Shown: positions 24,903 through 35,418 of the stretch, piece after piece | Layout: each line of letters begins with the position of its first letter | How positions within the stretch are numbered: position 1 is the stretch's first letter | DNA from: Gemmatimonadota bacterium | GTDB taxonomy: Bacteria; Gemmatimonadota; Gemmatimonadetes; Gemmatimonadales; Gemmatimonadaceae | Reading direction: 5' to 3' | Length of the DNA: 56,069 nt | Assembly: GCA_003141205.1 (NCBI GenBank) | Contig: PLLD01000193.1 | Location: 9,483-65,551, forward strand | Notes under the pieces: model-generated | What the model was told of the DNA's origin: nothing | The model's input: the letters and a program-made list of their open reading frames with translations, nothing else | The model's database searches: none | Program-made: the position numbers and the translations under genes

Positions 24903-26344
24903 CTTCTCCACGATCTACTCTCTCGCCCACGCCACGGACGCTGTTCGACAAGACGTGGGGCGCGCACGTCGTCCGCCCCGAGACGCCCGCGACGCCGGCC
25001 GTCCTGTACGTCGATCTCCATCTCGTGCACGAGGTGACGTCACCGCAGGCGTTCGCGGGGCTGCGCGCCCGCGGACGGACCGTCCGGCGCGCGGACCGCA
25101 CGATCGCGACGATGGATCACTCGACGCCGACGATCCCGCGCGCGCGCGGGTCGATCCCGGTGGTGGGCGGGGACCAGGGAGCCCAGCTGGCGCAGCTCGC
25201 GCGCAACTGCGCGGAGTTCGGCATTCCGCTGTTGGCTCTGGGCAACGATCGCCAGGGGATCGTGCACGTGATCGGACCGGAGATGGGGCTCACCCAGCCC
25301 GGCATGACCATCGTGTGCGGCGATAGCCACACGAGCACGCACGGCGCGTTCGGCGCGCTGGCCTTCGGGATCGGCACGTCGGAGGTCGAGCACGTCCTCG
25401 CGACCCAGTGCCTCCTGCAGCGCAAGCCACGCACGATGGCCGTGCGCGTGGATGGCCGGCTCCACCCGGGCGTATCGGCCAAGGACATCATCCTCGCCGT
25501 CATCGCGCAGGAAGGGGTGGATGGCGGGACGGGCCACGTCTTCGAATACATGGGCGAGGCGATCCGGGCGCTCTCGATGGAAGAGCGGATGACGGTGTGC
25601 AACATGTCGATCGAGGGGGGAGCCCGCGCGGGGCTGATCGCGCCGGACGACACCACGTTCGAATACATCGCCGGCCGCCCGGCCGCACCCGAGGGGGCCG
25701 CCTGGGACGCCGCCGTCGCCGAATGGCGGCAGTTGCCGAGCGACGACGGGGCGAGCTTCGACCGAACCGTCACCCTCGACGCGTCGCAGCTGGCGCCGAT
25801 GATTACGTATGGGACCAACCCCGGGATGGGGATGCCGATCGACGCGCGCGTCCCCGACCCCAGCGCGGCGCCCGATGCCGGACGGCGTCAGGCGCTCGAC
25901 AAGGCGCTCCATTATATGGATCTCCGCCCCGGCGAGCCGCTCCTCGGGAAACGGGTGGATGTCGTCTTTCTCGGCAGCTGCACGAACTCCCGCATCTCGG
26001 ATCTCCGGCAGGCGGCGGCGCTCATGCGCGGACGCGCGGTCGCCCAGGGCGTGCGCATGCTCGTCGTCCCGGGCTCGCAGCAGGTCAAGCGCCAGGCGGA
26101 AGCCGAGGGACTCGACGCCGTCTTCCGGGCCGCGGGCGCGGAATGGCGCGAGGCGGGCTGCTCGATGTGTATCGCGATGAACGACGATCGGCTGGCCCCC
26201 GGACAGTATGCGGTCAGCACCAGCAATCGGAACTTCGAAGGGCGCCAGGGGAAGGGGGGGCGAACCTTCCTCGCGAGCCCGCTGACCGCCGCGGCCACCG
26301 CGATCACGGGCGTCATCACCGACGCACGGACAATGGTGCATTGA
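24899..26344 (+). CDS. leuC: 3-isopropylmalate dehydratase large subunit
   Basis: Aconitase-family motifs ([23 protein letters not shown]). ATGA overlap with cimA. Confidence 0.95.
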
Positions 26345-26444
26345 GGATGCCCGATATGAGGATGCCCGATATGAGGATGCCCGATATGAGGATGCCCGAT
26401 ATGAGGATGCCCGATATGAGGATGCCCGATATGAGGATGCCCAT
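26343..26444. repeat. 15-bp tandem repeat (gaggatgcccgatat), 6 perfect units plus one 1-nt-shorter unit, filling the leuC-leuD spacer
   Basis: Read directly. The first unit overlaps the leuC TGA and the last unit supplies the SD of leuD. Confidence 0.97.
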
Positions 26445-27128
26445 ATGACGCTGACAGCAGAGAGGGGGGGGTCGGAGACCGCGCGCAATGCAGATGGGTC
26501 GGAGGTCCGCGCACGCATCGTGCGATTCACGGCGCCCGCCGTCCTGCTGCTCGCGAACGACATCGATACCGACCAGATCATCCCGGCCCGGTATCTCACC
26601 ACCACGGACAAGACCGGACTCGGCGACAAGCTGTTTTCCGATTGGCGCTATGACGCGAACGGGCAACCGAAGCCGGACTTCGTTCTCAACCGCCCGGAGG
26701 CGCGCACCGCGCAGGTCCTCGTGGCCGGATACAACTTCGGCTGCGGCTCCTCGCGCGAGCACGCGCCGTGGGCGCTCGTGGGGTTCGGATTCCGGGCGGT
26801 CGTCGCGCGGGACTTCGCCGACATCTTTCGCAACAATGCGCTCAAGAACGGTCTCCTGCCCGTCGCGATCGACGCCGCCGCGCACGAGCGGCTGGTCGCG
26901 TCGCTCACGGCGACACCGGGCGCGTCCGTAACCATCGACCTCGCCGATCAGACCATGACCCTTCCCGACGGGACGAGCGCGTCCTTTCCCGTAGACACGT
27001 TCGCGCAACACTGCCTGCTGTCCGGTATCGACGAGCTGGGATACCTCCTCACCGCCGACGCCGACATTCGGGCCTACGAAGCGGGGCATCCAGGACGGAT
27101 CCGGACCAGCGGCGTGGGAGCCAGCTGA
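26445..27128 (+). CDS. leuD: 3-isopropylmalate dehydratase small subunit
   Basis: [34 protein letters not shown] lies 7 nt upstream of the ATG. Confidence 0.9.
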
Positions 27129-28282: not shown

Positions 28283-28864
28283 TCACTTCTGGATGACGAT
28301 CTCCACGCGCCGATTTTTTTGCCGACCGACGGGATCGTCCGAGCCGTCGGTCTTCGTATTGGGCGCCACGGGGTTGGCCGCCCCGAATCCGCGCGTCTCG
28401 AACGTGACGTTATGGATGCCGCCTCTCGTGACAAACCACGTCTTCACCGCATCCGCGCGGCGAACCGACAGTCGTTGATTGTACGGGGCGGACCCTTTCG
28501 CATCGGTGTAGCCATCGATGCGGGCGGTCGATTTCCCCTTGTCGCGAACGACCTGTGCCGCGCGGGCGAGCGTGGAGTCCGCCCGCGGCAGGATGTCGGC
28601 CTTGTCGAAATCGAAGAGCACATCGGCCGACAGATCGATTCGGACCTCGGTCGGCAGCTCCTTGATCTCGATGTCCTTGACCTTGCCCCCCATATCCTGC
28701 ACACGATCGCTGACGGCCACGATCTTGTCCCGGATCTCCAGCGTGCGCGACGCGGCCTGCTGGGCGACCGCGCCGCCCGGCGTCGCCAGCAGCCCGACCG
28801 ACACCAGGACCGCCAGCATGACGACCAGCGGGAATTGCGTGCCGACGATGTCGCGGGGCAGCAT
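28283..28864 (-). CDS. OmpA-family protein (N-terminal TM/signal, C-terminal OmpA peptidoglycan-binding domain)
   Basis: VLFDFDKADILP...IDGYTDAKGSAPYNQRLSVRRADAV...NRRVEI. Start at the internal ATG (MLPRDIV) with GGAG upstream. Confidence 0.85.
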   Translation of the reverse strand: MLPRDIVGTQFPLVVMLAVLVSVGLLATPGGAVAQQAASRTLEIRDKIVAVSDRVQDMGGKVKDIEIKELPTEVRIDLSADVLFDFDKADILPRADSTLARAAQVVRDKGKSTARIDGYTDAKGSAPYNQRLSVRRADAVKTWFVTRGGIHNVTFETRGFGAANPVAPNTKTDGSDDPVGRQKNRRVEIVIQK

Positions 28865-28893
28865 GGGATCGGATCTCCAACCGCGGCGCCGCG

Positions 28894-29556
28894 TCACTGG
28901 CCGATCGGGATGTTCTCCATGGGCACGAAATGGGGGATGACGACGGTCATCGCGCGCACGTCCGGCGGCGGCGCCGGAAACTTCGCCCACAGAGTCGCCT
29001 GGGATTGCGGATCGATGTCCGGGACAGCCCGGCTGCAGAGACAGGTGCCATCAGCATCCCGTTGGGTGAAATATTTCCGCTTGTTGGCGGCATCGTGAAG
29101 ATTCGTCCCCCCGATGGATCGATACTCCCCTCCCACGCTGCTCTCACCAAAGTTGGCGCCGAGGTTGAACGCGCTCTTGGAATTATTGATGAGCACGAAG
29201 CGCAGGGTGACGGCATTCGGTCCGCGCGTGAGTGATTGAATGGCGACAGATATTCCCGGATAGTCGCCGTCACCCGTCGCGAGCGGCCCGGCCGACGACG
29301 CGGCCGCCGGTGGTGTCGGTGCCGGTGGTGTCAGTGCTGGCGGCGGAGGCGCGGCTGCCTGCGGGGTGGGAGCCGGTTGGGATGACGGTGCCGCTGCCGA
29401 AGGTGCGGCTGCCGAAGGTGCGGCTGCCGAAGGCGCGGCTGCCTGCGGTGGAATCGCTCGCGCGGAATCTCCGCTCTTGCCGCACGCGGCGATTGCGCCC
29501 AGCGCCAGCGTGGCGATGACGGAGATTCCCACACCACGCATCCTCGAGCCTGACAT
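28894..29556 (-). CDS. Lipoprotein of unknown function (Ala/Pro-rich linker plus beta-rich C-terminal domain)
   Basis: Signal peptide with lipobox IAAC. APSAA is repeated three times. SD GGGAGGAG lies 4 nt upstream of the ATG. Confidence 0.65.
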   Translation of the reverse strand: MSGSRMRGVGISVIATLALGAIAACGKSGDSARAIPPQAAAPSAAAPSAAAPSAAAPSSQPAPTPQAAAPPPPALTPPAPTPPAAASSAGPLATGDGDYPGISVAIQSLTRGPNAVTLRFVLINNSKSAFNLGANFGESSVGGEYRSIGGTNLHDAANKRKYFTQRDADGTCLCSRAVPDIDPQSQATLWAKFPAPPPDVRAMTVVIPHFVPMENIPIGQ

Positions 29557-29610
29557 ACGCTCCTCCCGACCGGTTGACCCGTTGCGCGGGACCCGCGCGC
29601 GGATACGTAT

Positions 29611-29637
29611 GTCGCCGATGCCGGGGAAGCGTTACGG
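29611..29637 (-). promoter_or_regulatory. Candidate ECF-type promoter (CCGTAACGC-N12-GGCGAC) in front of the lipoprotein-ompA pair
   Basis: The same bipartite motif, at the same distance from the ATG, occurs in front of the RDD gene (33796..33822). Confidence 0.4.
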
Positions 29638-29668
29638 TCCGGCGCGACGGCCGGGGGCCCGCGTGGGA

Positions 29669-32425
29669 TCAGCGGACTCCGCCGACCAGTACAAAGGGCG
29701 CCCAGCGCGAGGGATGTGCCATCGGGCCCGCCATCGCCAAACGGGCGCGCCGGACGGTGAGGAGGGCGGCCGCCGGTGTGCTGCCGGATCGCACCTCGCG
29801 ATAGAAGGCGCGCATGAAATCACCGGCGGAGCGATCGGTCACACGCCACAGCGTGACGACGACCCCCCCGGCGCCCGCGGCGAGAAACGCATGCGGAAGA
29901 CCGAAAACTCCCTCTCCGCGAACTCGGCGTCCGAGACCGGTCTCACAGGCGGAAAGCGTCACGAGATCCGATGTCAGATCGAGCCGGCGAATCGCCGGTA
30001 GGTCCAATACGTGGCCGCCCAGCACGAGCGCGTCGGCTTCCGGATTGCGCTCGCTGACCGTGGCGTGCGCCGCGAAGTGGAGGTAGCGGTAGCGCTCTGG
30101 CTGGAGGCGCCGCCACCGGTCGAGCGTCGCGTCCGCTCCGACGAGCACATCGGCACCCTGAGCCTGGAAGAGTGCCGCCACATCTCGAGCCTCCCCCGCC
30201 GCGTACGGCAGCGGGTCCCACACCGCCCGGCCGCGCGCGGAAGGATCGGCCAAAGCCGGCGCCGCGACGGGCGTGGGATCACCCAGCGCCAGCATCGCCC
30301 GCGACCAGTTCGCGCGCCCGGTTGCGCGCCCGGTTGCGCGCCCGGTTGCGCGCGCGAGCGCCGTCAGGACGGCGGAGGAGGGACCGTAGGCGAACTGACG
30401 CACGGCGCCCCAGGGCAACGCGCCCGCACGCGGCACGAACACTTCGAGCGGGACGTAGGCGAGCGGCCCATCGGGCACCACGAGAACCTCACCGGCCGAA
30501 TCCGGCACGAGAGGCGCGATAAACGTCGCGTACGCGCGCTCGGCGGCCGCCGCCCAGGGAGCGGCGCTCGTCGGATCATCCACCGCATCGCGCAGAAAGC
30601 TCACCAACGCGGCCAGCGAGTCTGCGCCTCCGATCCGCGCGGCGCGGACGGCGGAGCCGCTGACCCACCAGCCATACACCGCATCGTCGCCCCAAAAAAA
30701 TGTCACGAGCGCGCGACCCGGACCCAGCAGCTCGTGCTGGACCGTGGCGAGCGAGGCCGGCGCGGGAGAGCGCACGAGGTGCGCGGGATCGCCATTCCGG
30801 GCCGCACTGTCCAGCCGCTCCAGGGAATCGGTGAGCACCGCGATCTCGCGCTCCACGGCGGGCCGCTCCGCGACGGGCCGATCGCCCGCTTCGGCGAACC
30901 GCTCGCGCAGGCGCTCCCGCAGTTCCTCCCCGGGCGAATGCGCCGCACCCGCCGCGTGCTCCGCCATCAACTCGAGCAACAGCCGCGCGTGCGCGTGCTC
31001 CGCCACTTCGAACGCCTCGGCCACCCGTCGCTGGCGCAGCAGGATGCGGATCGCGCCTTCGTACGACGCTAGGCGCGGCTCGGCGACGCCCATCCGAAGA
31101 TCGCCGAGCGCGAGCCGCCCGCGCCACGATTCGAGCAGGGCGATCGTGCTCCGGTATTGAGTCAGCGCGTCGGCGCGGCCGGCGGCGTCGAGCGCCGCCG
31201 CATACGCTTCCCGCGCCTCCACCTCGGCGTCCGGGTCGCCCAACGAATCCGCAACGCGCACGGCTCCGCTGCCCCACGCGACGGCCGCATCCGGCTCACC
31301 CAGCATGGCCGCCGCGCGCGCGAGACCGGCGCGCGATGTGACACGCTCACGCCCGAAGCCCGCGGAGTCGGCCAAACGGCGCGCCGAATCGAGCACCGCG
31401 CGGGCCACCCCGGCGCGGCGATCGGCGAGCTCGACATGCCCGAGTGCGTCGAGGGACTGGACCCGGCCGTACGCGAAAAATCCGTTCCGGTTCAGCGCGA
31501 GACCCGTCGCGAGATGCTGGCGCGCGGCGGCGAGATCGCCCGAGCGCACGTACAACTCCGCGAGATCGCCGTGCACGTACACCTCGCCCCGGACGTTCGT
31601 CGTCTGCTCCGCCCCCCGAAGCGCGTCCGTCATGAGTGGGAGCGCACGGGCGTCATCGCCGATCGCGACGTAGACGTTCGCGAGATTCGCGGAGACGCGC
31701 GCGATCCCCTCGGGATTGCGGCGGGCGCGTTCGAACTCCAATGCACGCTCGAACGTGCCTTCCGCATCGGTGAAGCGCCCGAGATGGCGATAGTCGATGC
31801 CCAGCTCGTTCAGCTCGACGGCGACGGCGCGCGACGTGTCGCCGACGCTGGCCCGCTCGAGGGCGAGCGCTCGTGTGTTGTCGTCGAGCGCCTCGCGATA
31901 ATGCCCGGTTAGAGAATGGATCCGCCCCATCGCATGGTACGTGGCGCCCTCAAGCAGCCCGTCGCGAGCGATCCGCGCCGCCGCCTGCGCGCGGGTCGCC
32001 TCGGCGAACGCCGTGTCGAATTTTCCCTGCCGGTCGAAAAAGATGCTGCGCACGTGGTGCGTCCATCCCTGGCGATCCGGATCGGCTCCCGCGAGCGCAA
32101 GCGCGCCGTCGAGCATGCTCCGGGCGCTGTCGCGCCGACCGAGATGCGTGAGGGCGTCCCCCCACCAGAGCTGGGCGCGCCACAGATTGGCCGAGTCGTG
32201 GACCACGGCAAAGGAATCGCGCAGAGTACCGTACCGGAGCGCGGCCTCGGCCGACCGACCCTCGCGCCGCAGGCTATCGGCGGCCGCGAAAGCCGGCGAC
32301 GGGGCGAGCGGTCGGTCGCGCGCGCATCCGGACACCCCCGCTGAGAGCACGAGGCCGTACGCCAGACGGCAACGGCGCGGCACTGGACGAGGCGCGCGGA
32401 AGGTCGCGCCCGGCCCCCCGATCAT
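29669..32425 (-). CDS. TPR-repeat CHAT-domain protease, probable lipoprotein
   Basis: N-terminal signal with lipobox VSGC and a long TPR-like helical-repeat region. The C-terminal CHAT region has His (YLHFAAHA) and Cys (VTLSACETG) dyad motifs. An ATGA overlap links it to the anti-sigma gene. Confidence 0.85.
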   Translation of the reverse strand: MIGGPGATFRAPRPVPRRCRLAYGLVLSAGVSGCARDRPLAPSPAFAAADSLRREGRSAEAALRYGTLRDSFAVVHDSANLWRAQLWWGDALTHLGRRDSARSMLDGALALAGADPDRQGWTHHVRSIFFDRQGKFDTAFAEATRAQAAARIARDGLLEGATYHAMGRIHSLTGHYREALDDNTRALALERASVGDTSRAVAVELNELGIDYRHLGRFTDAEGTFERALEFERARRNPEGIARVSANLANVYVAIGDDARALPLMTDALRGAEQTTNVRGEVYVHGDLAELYVRSGDLAAARQHLATGLALNRNGFFAYGRVQSLDALGHVELADRRAGVARAVLDSARRLADSAGFGRERVTSRAGLARAAAMLGEPDAAVAWGSGAVRVADSLGDPDAEVEAREAYAAALDAAGRADALTQYRSTIALLESWRGRLALGDLRMGVAEPRLASYEGAIRILLRQRRVAEAFEVAEHAHARLLLELMAEHAAGAAHSPGEELRERLRERFAEAGDRPVAERPAVEREIAVLTDSLERLDSAARNGDPAHLVRSPAPASLATVQHELLGPGRALVTFFWGDDAVYGWWVSGSAVRAARIGGADSLAALVSFLRDAVDDPTSAAPWAAAAERAYATFIAPLVPDSAGEVLVVPDGPLAYVPLEVFVPRAGALPWGAVRQFAYGPSSAVLTALARATGRATGRATGRANWSRAMLALGDPTPVAAPALADPSARGRAVWDPLPYAAGEARDVAALFQAQGADVLVGADATLDRWRRLQPERYRYLHFAAHATVSERNPEADALVLGGHVLDLPAIRRLDLTSDLVTLSACETGLGRRVRGEGVFGLPHAFLAAGAGGVVVTLWRVTDRSAGDFMRAFYREVRSGSTPAAALLTVRRARLAMAGPMAHPSRWAPFVLVGGVR

Positions 32426-33054
32426 CGCGTCGGCCCGAGCGGCGTGACCGCGACGAGGGACGATCGGGCGAGCGATTGGCGTGTCGCATCGAGAGCGTCG
32501 ACGCTCCAGAAGGCGGCGCGTGCCCGCGCCCCCGCGGACAGCGAGTCACGCGGGATGCCGACGATCGTGTCCGTCACGGTGCGCTCGATGAGGACCGTGC
32601 CATCGGGCGCAAAGAGGCGGACGCGATACCGCTCGGCGCCATGCACCGGGAGCCATGTCAGCACAAGGGCATTGGCGTCGGTGGACGCACGCACCGTCAT
32701 CGCGGTCGCGCGACCGCGTTCCGTGTCGTCCGCGGCGGGACTCCGGCGGAGGTCGCTCGTGAGTCGCGAGCTCGCGGCAACGACGAGAACGATCGACGCG
32801 GCAACCGCCAGCGGCCACCTCGCCTGCGTCGCGCGACCGCGTGAGATCCAGCGCCGGGTGGCCGGAGCCTCGGCCATGCCGCTGAACGCGGCCCGCTGCT
32901 CGATTGCGCGCTGAAGGGAGGCCCAGCACCGATCGCACGCGAAATAGTGCGCCTCGAAGGCCTCGGCGTCGGCTTCGGTCAGGGTTCCCCGGAGATAGGC
33001 CCGCTCGATATCCGTGGCATCCACGAGATCGCAGTTCAGCTCCACGTCCGCCAT
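32422..33054 (-). CDS. Zinc-finger (zf-HC2) transmembrane anti-sigma factor
   Basis: HxxxCxxC motif (HYFACDRC) and one TM segment (WPLAVAASIVLVVAA). A roughly 110-aa extracytoplasmic domain follows. The gene lies 5 nt downstream of the ECF sigma gene. Confidence 0.75.
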   Translation of the reverse strand: MADVELNCDLVDATDIERAYLRGTLTEADAEAFEAHYFACDRCWASLQRAIEQRAAFSGMAEAPATRRWISRGRATQARWPLAVAASIVLVVAASSRLTSDLRRSPAADDTERGRATAMTVRASTDANALVLTWLPVHGAERYRVRLFAPDGTVLIERTVTDTIVGIPRDSLSAGARARAAFWSVDALDATRQSLARSSLVAVTPLGPTR

Positions 33055-33059
33055 GGCTC

Positions 33060-33674
33060 CTAGGTTCCCGATGCCAGCAGGGCGTTGCCCGCGGATGCCG
33101 GCACGAGATGGTCCGCCAGCCGACGCAGCGCCCGGTGCTTCCGCACGCGCACTGCCCCGGGCGTGCTATTCAGCCGCGCGGCGATCTCATCGGCGCTCAA
33201 CTGGTCGTAATAGGCGAGTCGCAGCAACTCGCGATCGGCGCGGTCGAGAGCCGCGAGCGCCGTGCGAACCGCCATTCGGCGCTCGTCGACGATCAACGCC
33301 GTCAGGGCATCGCTGGGATGTCCGTGCGTCGCCTGATCTCCCGACACCCGCTCGAGCGCCCGGTGTTCCCGGGCCTTCGATCGGTGCAACTGCATGCAGA
33401 CGTGACGCGCGGTCTGAAAGACGAACGCGGCAAGCGCGGGCGGGTGCTCGATTCGCTCCGTGCGGAGCGCGTGGCCGACACGGCGTAGCGTCTCCTGCGC
33501 GACATCCTCCGCCCCTTCCACATTCCCGAGCCGCCGCGCGGCAAAGACGCGAATACGATCCCAAAAGCGGTGGGCCAGCTCACCTTCGGATGGCATCGCC
33601 GCCGGTGCGGCCGGGCCCGGCTGCGGGACGGCCGGCATGTCCGCCGGACCCACGCTCGAGTCTGCTACTGGCAT
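33060..33674 (-). CDS. ECF-family RNA polymerase sigma-70 factor
   Basis: Region 2 (AEDVAQETLRRV..FVFQTARHV) and region 4 (LSADEIAARLNSTPGAVRVRKHRALRRL). The start is uncertain, with in-frame ATGs at 33674, 33638 and 33596. Confidence 0.85.
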   Translation of the reverse strand: MPVADSSVGPADMPAVPQPGPAAPAAMPSEGELAHRFWDRIRVFAARRLGNVEGAEDVAQETLRRVGHALRTERIEHPPALAAFVFQTARHVCMQLHRSKAREHRALERVSGDQATHGHPSDALTALIVDERRMAVRTALAALDRADRELLRLAYYDQLSADEIAARLNSTPGAVRVRKHRALRRLADHLVPASAGNALLASGT

Positions 33675-33795
33675 AACCCCCCCGGCACCGCCTGCGAGCC
33701 GATCCGTCGGCGCCTTCGCACATCGCGCCCGTGGTCCCGTTAACCCTGCAGGCCAAGGTATTACCCCCTTTCGGCATTGGGAAGGAACCGGCTCG

Positions 33796-33875: not shown

Positions 33876-35345
33876 ATGACCGCGACCGATGCGACCGATT
33901 CAGCCAATCACGGGACGCCATTCACCGCGAGCGCCGCGCCGTCGCCGACCGGCGCCGACTCGACGGTGGAAGGACAGATCGCAGGATTCGGCGATCGCGC
34001 GCTCGCGCTGATCCTCGATACTGTCTTCTGCATTCTCGCATTCGCGGTCATTGGCAACTGGGCCGCCATCCGTTGGGGCGGGGCGACCAGCAGTGGGTTC
34101 AACCTTTCGGGGCTCCCCGCGCTCGTGACGATCTCCCTGACAGGGCTGGTGTGCTTCGTGTACTACTGGATTCTGGAGGGCACCCTTGGCGCGACGCTCG
34201 GCAAGGCCATCGTCGGCATACGCGTGCGTCGCGTCGACGGGGCGAAAGCCGATCTGCGGGCATCGCTCATACGCAACCTCCTGCGCGTCGTCGATGGGCT
34301 CGCGGTCTACCTCGTCGGCTGGATCATCGCCGCCTTCTCCCGTCTCCGACAGCGGCTCGGCGATCGCGTTGCCGGCACGGTCGTCATCCGGGCCCCCGGG
34401 GACCGCACCATCCGGTACGCGGGGGGCATCGCGCTGGCCGCAGCGAGTGTTGCGGCGATCATCGCGATCATATCGATTCGGCATGCCGCTGCGCAGACCA
34501 GTGTCGCGCCGCAAGCCGGATCGAGCCCGCCGGCTATCACCTCGACGGCGGCACAGGGGGACGCCCCGCCCCCTGCGGGGGGAGATGGCCTCACGCTGAG
34601 CACCATCACCTGGATGAGCGAGGCGGGTGGCGCGCCGCACAGCGGACCGTATACACCCGGCAGCCATGTGTTCGCGAAATACGAGATAACGGGTTTCGCG
34701 CACGGCCCGCAGGGACAGGTCAAGGTCGCGATCCGCATCCTCGCCGTCGATCCGACTGGCCTCGCCATGGGGGATTCCATTCCGAGCGATGTCGATGCGA
34801 CGGACCCGACGAGCGCTCCCATCTACGGCCATTTCGACATCCAGCTGCCTGATTACGCGCCTGCGGGCGGGTATGCGGCGCACCTCCATGTCCACGATGC
34901 GATCGGCGGTCGCGACGCGACGTTTGCGCCACCGTTCAGCGTGACTGCGCCTCCGGACGCTCCCGCCAGCAAGCTGGAAATGCGGGACCTGGGCCTTTCG
35001 ACGACCGACGGCGGCCAGGTACTCGCACACCCCGTATTTCATGCGGGCGAGACAGTGTACTTCACCGGTCGCGCGTTCGGCGTGCAATTCCGCGACGCCA
35101 ATCCGGATTTTCACGTCGACGTCCTCCTGCTCGGGCCGTCGGGGTCGACGATCCTGGGAAAGACCGATTGGGGCAAGATGATCGGCGCGGTCAATTATCG
35201 GCCGGCGACGTTCTTCGTCCCGGTCGACGGGACCGTCACGCTTCCCGCCAAGGCGGCGCCGGGCCCGTACGTGATCCGTCTTGGACTCCGAGACCTCGTG
35301 GCGCAGGCATCGCTGAATGCCGATGTCGCGTTCGATATGCAGTAG
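33876..35345 (+). CDS. RDD-family membrane protein with two C-terminal beta-sandwich-like extracytoplasmic domains
   Basis: RDD core: AGFGDRALALILD..YYWILEGTLGATLGKAIVGIRV..RNLLRVVDG. A further TM segment is followed by a roughly 270-aa repeated domain. Confidence 0.75.
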   Translation: MTATDATDSANHGTPFTASAAPSPTGADSTVEGQIAGFGDRALALILDTVFCILAFAVIGNWAAIRWGGATSSGFNLSGLPALVTISLTGLVCFVYYWILEGTLGATLGKAIVGIRVRRVDGAKADLRASLIRNLLRVVDGLAVYLVGWIIAAFSRLRQRLGDRVAGTVVIRAPGDRTIRYAGGIALAAASVAAIIAIISIRHAAAQTSVAPQAGSSPPAITSTAAQGDAPPPAGGDGLTLSTITWMSEAGGAPHSGPYTPGSHVFAKYEITGFAHGPQGQVKVAIRILAVDPTGLAMGDSIPSDVDATDPTSAPIYGHFDIQLPDYAPAGGYAAHLHVHDAIGGRDATFAPPFSVTAPPDAPASKLEMRDLGLSTTDGGQVLAHPVFHAGETVYFTGRAFGVQFRDANPDFHVDVLLLGPSGSTILGKTDWGKMIGAVNYRPATFFVPVDGTVTLPAKAAPGPYVIRLGLRDLVAQASLNADVAFDMQ

Positions 35346-35378
35346 CGATGCCGTAGCGATGCCGTAGCGATGCAGTAG
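35333..35378. repeat. 11-bp direct repeats (cgatgc[ca]gtag), about 4 units, overlapping the RDD stop
   Basis: Read directly. TAG triplets at 35343, 35354, 35365 and 35376 cover all three frames. Confidence 0.9.
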
Positions 35379-35418
35379 CGCGGACCGGCGCGCGTCGGTG
35401 CGAACGTGGGGACTCAGC

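Follow-up and report, generated by a model that had tools for sequence, protein, structure and literature searches.

How is a sigma factor of the extracytoplasmic function (ECF) type set free when the gene behind its membrane-bound anti-sigma factor encodes a caspase-like protease? The question is raised by a gene cluster in a 56,069-nt stretch of DNA from a Gemmatimonadota bacterium (Gemmatimonadaceae, contig PLLD01000193.1), referred to here as the window. Five genes of the minus strand code, in this order, for an ECF sigma factor, a zinc-binding anti-sigma (ZAS) factor, an exported protein with tetratricopeptide repeats (TPR) and a CHAT protease domain, a lipoprotein without a family and an OmpA-like protein. 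The five open reading frames (ORFs) and their spacings had been described in an earlier, sequence-only reading, and both the ORF list and a re-reading of the junctions agree with it. The sigma and anti-sigma genes are 5 nt apart, the anti-sigma stop and the CHAT start share an ATGA, and gaps of 112 and 29 nt follow the CHAT and the lipoprotein genes, respectively. Searches with the Pfam and NCBIfam profiles also bore out the domains assigned there (ECF sigma, zf-HC2, TPR-CHAT, and OmpA).

Conservation of the three-gene module

The conserved unit of this cluster is a module of three genes, that is, ECF sigma factor, single-pass ZAS anti-sigma factor and exported TPR-CHAT protein. A scan for relatives of the CHAT protein, covering one genome per GTDB species, gave 80 loci. 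All ORFs of these loci were translated and searched with iteratively built profiles of the sigma, CHAT and anti-sigma proteins. Loci with 41–58% CHAT identity and an available upstream flank were treated as close (n = 14). They belong to metagenome-assembled genomes (MAGs) of Gemmatimonadota (11), Thermoanaerobaculia (1) and Acidobacteriota (1), and to one MAG labelled as Gammaproteobacteria (L012). In all 14 the trio is contiguous, with a sigma gene and a full-length anti-sigma homologue directly upstream of the CHAT gene and on the same strand. Overlaps of start and stop codons, or gaps of 0–4 nt, are frequent between the anti-sigma and CHAT genes. The same trio is found in L001 and L003, two contigs retrieved by exact protein look-up; L002, retrieved in the same manner, is the exception, with its CHAT gene set apart.

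Six distant loci of Acidobacteriota (L027, L029, L041, L063, L073, and L078) keep the order of sigma, ZAS anti-sigma and exported TPR-CHAT genes, with CHAT proteins of 24–29% identity to that of the window. The adjacency of CHAT and ECF/anti-sigma genes, on which the sequence-only reading depended, is thus conserved in close and distant relatives. When the look-up was performed from the anti-sigma side, a TPR-CHAT gene followed in two of the three relatives, the third being L086. The trio arrangement is far beyond chance: genomes from two phyla repeat it independently. Likewise, an ECF sigma gene lies within 6 kb of the CHAT gene in 36 of the 83 distinct loci (L005, being on the same contig as L003, is left out of this count), which is far over the expectation from the density of ECF genes.

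No fused anti-sigma/TPR-CHAT protein was found among the related loci examined. Apparent fused ORFs of 1039–1291 aa in L001, L010, L018, and L073 are artefacts of choosing the most upstream start in GC-rich DNA, and the real CHAT proteins of these loci begin at a signal peptide bearing a lipobox.

Variants of the pairing were seen elsewhere. In Bacteroidota, an ECF sigma gene and a non-zinc anti-sigma-like gene stand beside an exported TPR-CHAT gene in co-directional, convergent or divergent orientation (L037, L050, L059, and L066 of Flavobacteriaceae; L035 and L075; L028). A third phylum, with another class of anti-sigma factor, may thus share the link of CHAT and ECF genes. In a MAG of Pyrinomonadaceae (L077, 3400–7506), the gene of an ECF sigma factor is accompanied by those of a 162-aa protein lacking a transmembrane helix and of a 935-aa TPR-CHAT protein lacking a signal peptide; here the pairing may exist in a cytoplasmic form. 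In the Gammaproteobacteria-labelled locus (L012, DATLFD010000046.1), whose CHAT protein is 47% identical, the same trio is accompanied by the RDD, lipoprotein and OmpA genes known from the window and L001; mis-binning or horizontal transfer is possible.

The encoded proteins and their kinship

The known system with which these proteins have to be compared is DdvS-DdvA of Myxococcus xanthus, where an ECF sigma factor is paired with a transmembrane ZAS anti-sigma factor fused to a periplasmic TPR-CHAT region (PMC11506125, PMC6061681). Structures of DdvA are available (PDB 8ROT, 8RW5, and 8RLZ; PMC11506125). Judged by sequence and structure, the locus of the window is a putative split, two-gene version of the DdvA system, because among solved proteins DdvA stands nearest to the TPR-CHAT protein and also to the N-terminus of the anti-sigma factor.

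The CHAT domain is full-length (Pfam PF12770, E 4e-55, 187.7 bits, profile positions 3–288 of 289) and is preceded by matches to TPR_12, TPR_10, and TPR_7. More than 300 close full-length homologues exist, and those with a named source come from MAGs of Gemmatimonadaceae or Gemmatimonadales. The motifs LHFAAHA and LSACETG and the lipobox VSGC, pointed out in the sequence-only reading, are all present in the 918-aa protein. An alignment of 26 homologues (46–81% identity) shows no substitution at His783, His787, or Cys827, and at least 90% of the sequences keep the lipobox Cys34.

When a profile was built from the C-terminal 360 residues, its best match among solved structures was DdvA (PDB 8ROT, E 2.8e-7), and Csx29, the TPR-CHAT protease of type III-E CRISPR loci, came next (E about 0.015–0.02). 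A single-sequence search of the PDB with the whole protein returned TPR proteins only, and the C-terminal profile was needed to reach DdvA and Csx29. In the profile alignment H862 of DdvA is paired with His787 (the second His of LHFAAHA) and C907 with Cys827; H862 and C907 form the dyad of DdvA (PMC11506125). The two residues also align with the dyad of Csx29, and Cys827 coincides with the Cys of the ACE motif in DdvA and Csx29. The His and Cys are located at the catalytic positions, and an active protease is therefore likely from the invariant dyad and its alignment to both enzymes.

The AlphaFold2 (AF2) model of the monomer has a mean predicted local distance difference test (pLDDT) score of 83.8 and consists of a disordered signal region, a TPR solenoid (residues ~47–552) and an alpha/beta CHAT domain (570–915). 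Compared with the PDB by Foldseek, it matches DdvA first (8rw5/8rot, E 4e-15), then human separase and then Csx29. The whole-chain TM-scores are low (~0.3), as expected because of the long flexible solenoids. A 12-nt tandem repeat within the CHAT gene (4.4 copies, window 30300–30353) encodes an (ATGR)x3 insertion. This insertion is missing in 25 of 25 aligned homologues and forms a loop (residues 722–734) with pLDDT <50.

The lipoboxes VSGC34 of the CHAT protein and IAAC25 of the 220-aa lipoprotein agree with the consensus [LVI][ASTVI][GAS]C, and both proteins are predicted to be lipidated. Distant TPR-CHAT relatives likewise carry lipoboxes or signal peptides. Because it carries a conserved lipoprotein signal, the CHAT protein should share its compartment with the ectodomain of the anti-sigma factor, as the earlier reading had expected.

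The anti-sigma factor has a zf-HC2 domain (26.1 bits against a Pfam cut-off of 22.2). Its residues C8, H36, C40, and C43 are conserved in 94–100% of 149 full-length representatives of the family and form the CHCC pattern that is reported for DdvA. The H-x3-C-x2-C motif with a fourth ligand, in a gene directly after that of the sigma factor, identifies it as a ZAS protein with predicted zinc and sigma binding. The best sequence match of the family profile in the PDB is the segment of DdvA (residues 11–97) which comprises the ZAS domain and the transmembrane helix (E 0.008).

A single transmembrane helix is predicted at about residues 82–101 (hydropathy maximum at residue 82, AF2 helix 84–101), leaving 109 residues beyond it, in line with the extracytoplasmic domain of roughly 110 aa noticed earlier. 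The AF2 model shows cytoplasmic helices (8–61, pLDDT 76–93), a linker of low confidence after the transmembrane helix (pLDDT <50) and a beta-sandwich (117–203, pLDDT >90). The latter matches fibronectin type III (FN3) domains with TM-scores of 0.6–0.69, normalised to the target (Foldseek).

The most conserved periplasmic positions in the 149 representatives are Arg113 (97%), Gly114 (85%), and Trp134 (97%). Trp134 lies inside the folded domain, and Arg113-Gly114 ends the otherwise variable linker. The linker Arg is invariant in the 23 anti-sigma factors from the loci of Gemmatimonadota and Acidobacteriota and is retained in the six distant loci. A separase-type ExxR motif was considered for the same place. 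Its acidic P4 residue is found in 17 of the 23 locus-derived sequences but in 39% of the 149 representatives, and the candidate was reduced to Arg-Gly alone.

The anti-sigma type is common: among 1.8 billion cluster representatives scanned, 232 clusters (50% identity) matched with E <= 1e-30 and 1712 with E <= 1e-10.

In the case of the sigma factor, Sigma70_r2 (29.7 bits, cut-off 24) and Sigma70_r4_2 (47.8 bits, cut-off 25.7) are matched in Pfam. The NCBIfam profile TIGR02937 for sigma70-ECF scores 69.6 bits against a cut-off of 42.9 and places the protein in ECF group 4. Every NCBIfam subfamily match is far under its cut-off and no numbered ECF group is assigned. The best PDB matches are the ECF sigma factors SigE, SigD, and SigL. 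The start of the gene is uncertain, as the reading frame is open upstream as far as 33821. Many orthologues have a conserved N-terminal extension (MSP[IM]xGERY...) ahead of region 2 (L002, L003, L006, L010, L012, L013, L014, and L016), which the window protein and L001 do not have.

In 6 of 17 related loci an element resembling TT[GC][TC][TC]C-N14-15-[CG]GTAA occurs 80–115 nt upstream of the proposed sigma start (window ~33715–33790 and the homologous regions of L001, L002, L003, L006, and L013). An enumeration of two-block motifs over the 17 upstream regions found no shared ECF promoter better than in shuffled sequences. The TTGTTC-N14-15-CGTAA-like element is a possible candidate for an autoregulated ECF promoter, statistically not separable from shared ancestry.

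Possible roles of the protease and of the neighbouring genes

The kinship to DdvA suggests a route by which the sigma factor could be released. At rest, the zinc-binding cytoplasmic domain of the anti-sigma factor would hold the sigma factor at the inner membrane. The TPR-CHAT protein would be secreted and lipid-anchored, with its protease domain facing the compartment of the anti-sigma linker and FN3 domain. Either the TPR solenoid or the FN3 domain would sense a signal, and the CHAT protease would then cut the linker in trans, most likely between Arg113 and Gly114, as the site-1 step. An RseP-type site-2 protease and cytoplasmic proteases would subsequently clear the stub and free the sigma factor. 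This would be the DdvA design with its sensor/protease detached as a separate lipoprotein.

We give about even chances to such a site-1 cleavage of the anti-sigma linker by the lipoprotein protease, as part of regulated proteolysis. It is favoured because the synteny of the trio is kept when viewed from the CHAT side and from the anti-sigma side, because DdvA joins the same two parts in one polypeptide, because Arg113-Gly114 is conserved at the end of the linker and separase, a protease of the CHAT fold, cuts after Arg (PMC11506125), and because removal of the periplasmic domain of DdvA permits RseP-dependent degradation of the remaining stub (PMC11506125). The wider proposition, in which a lipid-anchored CHAT protease is dedicated to the site-1 step of a widespread ECF pathway and cuts the anti-sigma factor in trans at the Arg-Gly beside an FN3 sensor, is put forward tentatively and is somewhat doubtful.

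Several points weigh against cleavage. The closest relationship to DdvA is coarse, as the PDB contains just three CHAT lineages. Genes downstream of sigma/anti-sigma pairs are often targets of the regulon and not regulators. L002 has 2.8 kb and two genes of the opposite strand between its CHAT gene and the sigma/anti-sigma pair. In L086 (1110–3310), a related anti-sigma factor (P0132) of the FN3 type, with its Arg-Gly kept, is followed by a 413-aa non-CHAT gene whose product has no Pfam domain; this contig is 4.5 kb long. The acidic P4 residue that would complete ExxR is limited to the 39% mentioned above, and Arg-Gly could serve to cap the FN3 domain structurally instead of being a cut site. 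Whether the lipoprotein is anchored in the inner or the outer membrane is not predictable for this phylum. Cleavage, interaction and regulon are hypothetical for the split anti-sigma/TPR-CHAT family, and even for DdvA cleavage by CHAT is still a hypothesis (PMC11506125).

The TPR-CHAT lipoprotein may otherwise be an output of the sigma factor, co-transcribed with it and induced by it, which degrades or processes other envelope proteins (damaged proteins, proteins of competitors or phages, or surface structures), with the anti-sigma factor inactivated by a DegS/Prc-type protease or by oxidation of its zinc site. We consider this unlikely. Many ECF operons have their targets downstream of the anti-sigma gene, as is generally known, and the re-classification of ECF sigma factors warns that genomic context cannot tell regulators from targets. 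The convergent or divergent TPR-CHAT genes of four Bacteroidota loci (L037, L050, L035, and L075) fit a regulated neighbour as well as a regulator, and the detached CHAT gene of L002 points the same way. The CHCC site of the ZAS domain could also act as a redox sensor, as has been discussed for DdvA (PMC11506125). An output role is less easily reconciled with the fusion of ZAS anti-sigma and TPR-CHAT parts in DdvA, which argues for a direct physical partnership, or with the co-occurrence of the anti-sigma ectodomain and its Arg-Gly with the CHAT gene over two phyla. The ATGA-type overlaps, in addition, suggest translational coupling and matched amounts of the two proteins.

Another reading is that the TPR-CHAT protein is a co-sensor which is non-proteolytic or only processes itself. 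It would bind the FN3 domain and shield the anti-sigma factor from another site-1 protease, in the manner of RseB with RseA, or the ectodomain would be a securin-like pseudosubstrate that restrains the protease, and the signal would consist in the release of the complex. TPR solenoids are indeed protein-binding scaffolds, separase is kept inactive by its pseudosubstrate securin (PMC11506125), the bulky periplasmic domain of DdvA sterically blocks RseP (PMC11506125), and the FN3 domain shows good conservation and a confident fold. The strict invariance of the His/Cys dyad and its motifs in the 26 homologues, however, is an indication that catalysis is under selection, and nothing so far points to binding between the CHAT protein and the anti-sigma factor. 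A co-sensor of this kind is accordingly quite improbable.

The weakest alternative, that all five genes including those of the lipoprotein and the OmpA-like protein form one operon and one machine, is very improbable. In its favour, the genes are co-directional in the window with just 112 nt and no terminator-like site between the two parts, and in three related genomes the pair has stayed at a distance of a few kb from the trio although the region is rearranged. Against it, most relatives lack the pair around the trio, the closest one (L001, 80% identical) has it inverted and facing the CHAT gene convergently, L012 has it behind a divergent RDD gene, and no shared promoter motif was found. 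The five-gene unit described in the sequence-only reading is thus not upheld as a conserved unit.

If site-1 cleavage by the CHAT protease is correct, the principle of DdvA, thought to be confined to Myxococcota, would be common in split form in Gemmatimonadota and Acidobacteriota and perhaps in Bacteroidota. The split system widens the range known for the design, so far a few Myxococcota, by at least 232 anti-sigma clusters (50% identity, E <= 1e-30) in abundant soil phyla which have been little studied experimentally, and a caspase-fold enzyme would join the short list of bacterial routes for passing signals across the inner membrane. It also offers enzyme and substrate as two pieces that can be expressed in soluble form, namely the mature TPR-CHAT protein and the 109-residue ectodomain with its candidate site, and the key cleavage experiment therefore becomes simple. 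The output is apparently no local defence island, and its role may differ from that of DdvA.

The coordinates of the module and of its neighbours are collected in table 1. The G+C content of the window is ~70%. The five-gene cluster sits between leuCDB and ilvD, and its flanks comprise leuA-D, ilvD, ilvB and the RDD gene, as seen in the ORF list and the neighbourhood comparison.

Table 1. Positions in the window of the genes of the cluster and of the predicted parts of their products
Feature	Position	Strand	Basis or remark
ECF (group 4) sigma factor, 204 aa from ATG at 33674	33060..33674	-	Sigma70_r2, Sigma70_r4_2, TIGR02937
ZAS anti-sigma factor, CHCC-type, single-pass, 210 aa	32422..33054	-	zf-HC2; C8/H36/C40/C43 conserved; match to DdvA N-terminus
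Cytoplasmic anti-sigma domain, residues 1–61, predicted zinc ligands C8/H36/C40/C43	32872..33054	-	AF2 helices; alignment to ZAS domain of DdvA
Predicted anti-sigma transmembrane helix, ~residues 82–101	32752..32811	-	Hydropathy; AF2 helix
Arg113-Gly114, candidate scissile bond at end of disordered juxtamembrane linker	32713..32718	-	Conservation; linker pLDDT <50
Predicted periplasmic FN3-like beta-sandwich of anti-sigma factor, residues 117–203	32446..32706	-	AF2; Foldseek
Exported TPR-CHAT caspase-like cysteine protease, predicted lipoprotein, 918 aa	29669..32425	-	CHAT, TPR_12; AF2; Foldseek
Lipoprotein signal peptide of TPR-CHAT protein, lipobox V-S-G-C34	32324..32425	-	Arg-rich n-region, hydrophobic core, lipobox
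TPR solenoid, residues ~47–552	30770..32287	-	AF2 helix-turn-helix repeats; TPR_12, TPR_10, TPR_7
CHAT protease domain, residues ~570–915	29681..30718	-	Dyad conservation; profile alignment to DdvA/Csx29
Codon of His787 (catalytic position)	30065-30067	-	Codon checked in sequence
Codon of Cys827 (catalytic position)	29945-29947	-	Codon checked in sequence
Lipoprotein without family, 220 aa, lipobox IAAC	28894..29556	-	Neighbour, no fixed part of the module
OmpA-like peptidoglycan-binding protein with signal peptide	28283..28864	-	Pfam OmpA
RDD-family membrane protein, divergent from sigma gene	33876..35345	+	RDD E 2.7e-19; loosely linked neighbour

The 220-aa lipoprotein has no family in Pfam or NCBIfam. 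It consists of the lipobox segment, an Ala/Pro-rich repeat linker and a C-terminal domain of ~120 aa. A 15-nt tandem repeat (3.8 copies, window 29387–29443) encodes the AAPSA repeats of the linker. The OmpA-like protein matches OmpA in Pfam (E 5.7e-19, 68.7 bits, cut-off 27.2), and partial YiaD- and YfiB-like matches in NCBIfam are under their cut-offs.

The lipoprotein-OmpA pair is near the trio in three loci only (the window, L001, and L012). In the window it lies downstream on the same strand, and in L012 it is downstream of the RDD gene. The same three loci are the only ones with an RDD gene divergent from the sigma gene (L001, 3083–4558; L012, 3318–4718; window, as in table 1). That the pair stays near the trio despite rearrangement could reflect shared regulation within a subclade. 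No convincing copy of the promoter-like element was found upstream of the lipoprotein gene, and when its upstream regions from the three loci were aligned, only the ribosome-binding region was conserved. Neither consensus scans for terminators and promoters nor the folding of the 112-nt gap rose above background.

Two more tandem repeats were noticed in the window. A 15-nt unit (TGAGGATGCCCGATA, 7.2 copies, 98% matches, 26342–26448) occupies the whole gap from the stop of leuC (26344) to the start of leuD (26445). An 11-nt unit (4 copies, 35337–35380) is located at the 3′ end of the RDD gene, beside ilvD.

Comparison with known systems

Full-text literature searches that combined CHAT with either ECF or anti-sigma led to no papers other than those on DdvA and CRISPR, and the two DdvA papers (PMC11506125, PMC6061681) make no mention of a split form. 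The split module of sigma factor, FN3-bearing anti-sigma factor and lipoprotein TPR-CHAT is undescribed in the searched literature; an entry in the online ECF Hub is possible. ECF54 of Actinobacteria, included in the classifications of Huang et al. 2015 and Casas-Pastor et al. 2021, is the only ECF group with CHAT in the supplementary group descriptions of the latter, where Gemmatimonadetes are scarcely represented. Its described genomic context includes a CHAT/TPR protein, as in the window. In contrast to the window, ECF54 has no anti-sigma factor, is limited to Actinobacteria and has CHAT at position +3 or -2 with genes for a subtilase and a carboxypeptidase-regulatory-like protein. Near the trio of the window an anti-sigma gene is present and no subtilase or CarboxypepD_reg gene was found.

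Separase resembles the TPR-CHAT protein in combining a helical-repeat solenoid with a caspase-like domain (Foldseek E 1e-12). It cleaves after Arg in a disordered segment, and the candidate Arg-Gly of the window is likewise in a disordered linker. Unlike the window protein, separase is eukaryotic and nuclear, and the identity between the two is 10–12%.

The RseA-DegS-RseP pathway, by which the anti-sigma factor of sigma-E is degraded in Escherichia coli, is the established case of regulated intramembrane proteolysis. A single-pass anti-sigma factor cut first at a periplasmic site 1 and then at an intramembrane site 2 is what is proposed for the window as well. The site-1 enzyme of that pathway is a PDZ serine protease encoded elsewhere, whereas the candidate of the window is an operon-encoded lipoprotein, a caspase-fold cysteine protease. 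In addition, RseA is not a ZAS protein.

The sequence-only reading had relied on the craspase of type III-E CRISPR as its precedent. This precedent is real, as the protein cut by Csx29, which acts with Cas7-11, is Csx30, and Csx30 inhibits the ECF-type CASP-sigma (PMC10028731), but the closer one, DdvA, had been missed. The likeness lies in a TPR-CHAT protease with an aligned dyad and a matching fold, for which a substrate inhibiting an ECF sigma factor is proposed in the window too. Csx29, on the other hand, is cytoplasmic and activated by RNA via Cas7-11, while the TPR-CHAT protein of the window has a conserved lipoprotein signal and is closer in sequence to DdvA than to Csx29, and Csx30 is unrelated to ZAS anti-sigma factors. 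That the pairing occurs here without Cas7-11 agrees with the earlier observation, since the largest ORF of the 56-kb window has 952 aa and the neighbours are metabolic.

DdvA remains the nearest relative. Its fused type is reported from Myxococcota and one Comamonas only. A CBASS/CRISPR defence island next to its gene is under its control. It forms a dimeric arrowhead-shaped assembly, its CHAT site is without the three-helix motif, and in the cryo-electron microscopy structures the active site of the periplasmic TPR-CHAT region faces the flexible linker beside the transmembrane helix (PMC11506125). Its authors propose autoproteolysis by CHAT, induced by a signal, as the site-1 step, a cut that was never observed (PMC11506125). 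The window differs in having two genes for anti-sigma factor and TPR-CHAT protein in place of one polypeptide, in the lipoprotein nature of the latter and in the FN3-like ectodomain which belongs to the anti-sigma factor itself. Cleavage would hence take place between proteins and not within a dimer. The window type is found in Gemmatimonadota and Acidobacteriota, and its trio is flanked by leu and ilv genes with no CBASS or CRISPR genes nearby; PADLOC detected only generic TPR and MotB-like matches in the window and no specific defence system. Common to both are an ECF sigma gene beside that of a single-pass anti-sigma factor with a CHCC-type zinc site, a TPR-CHAT region with the canonical His/Cys dyad, periplasmic in DdvA and predicted to be so in the window, and a flexible juxtamembrane linker which in both proposals would be cut by CHAT before RseP acts.

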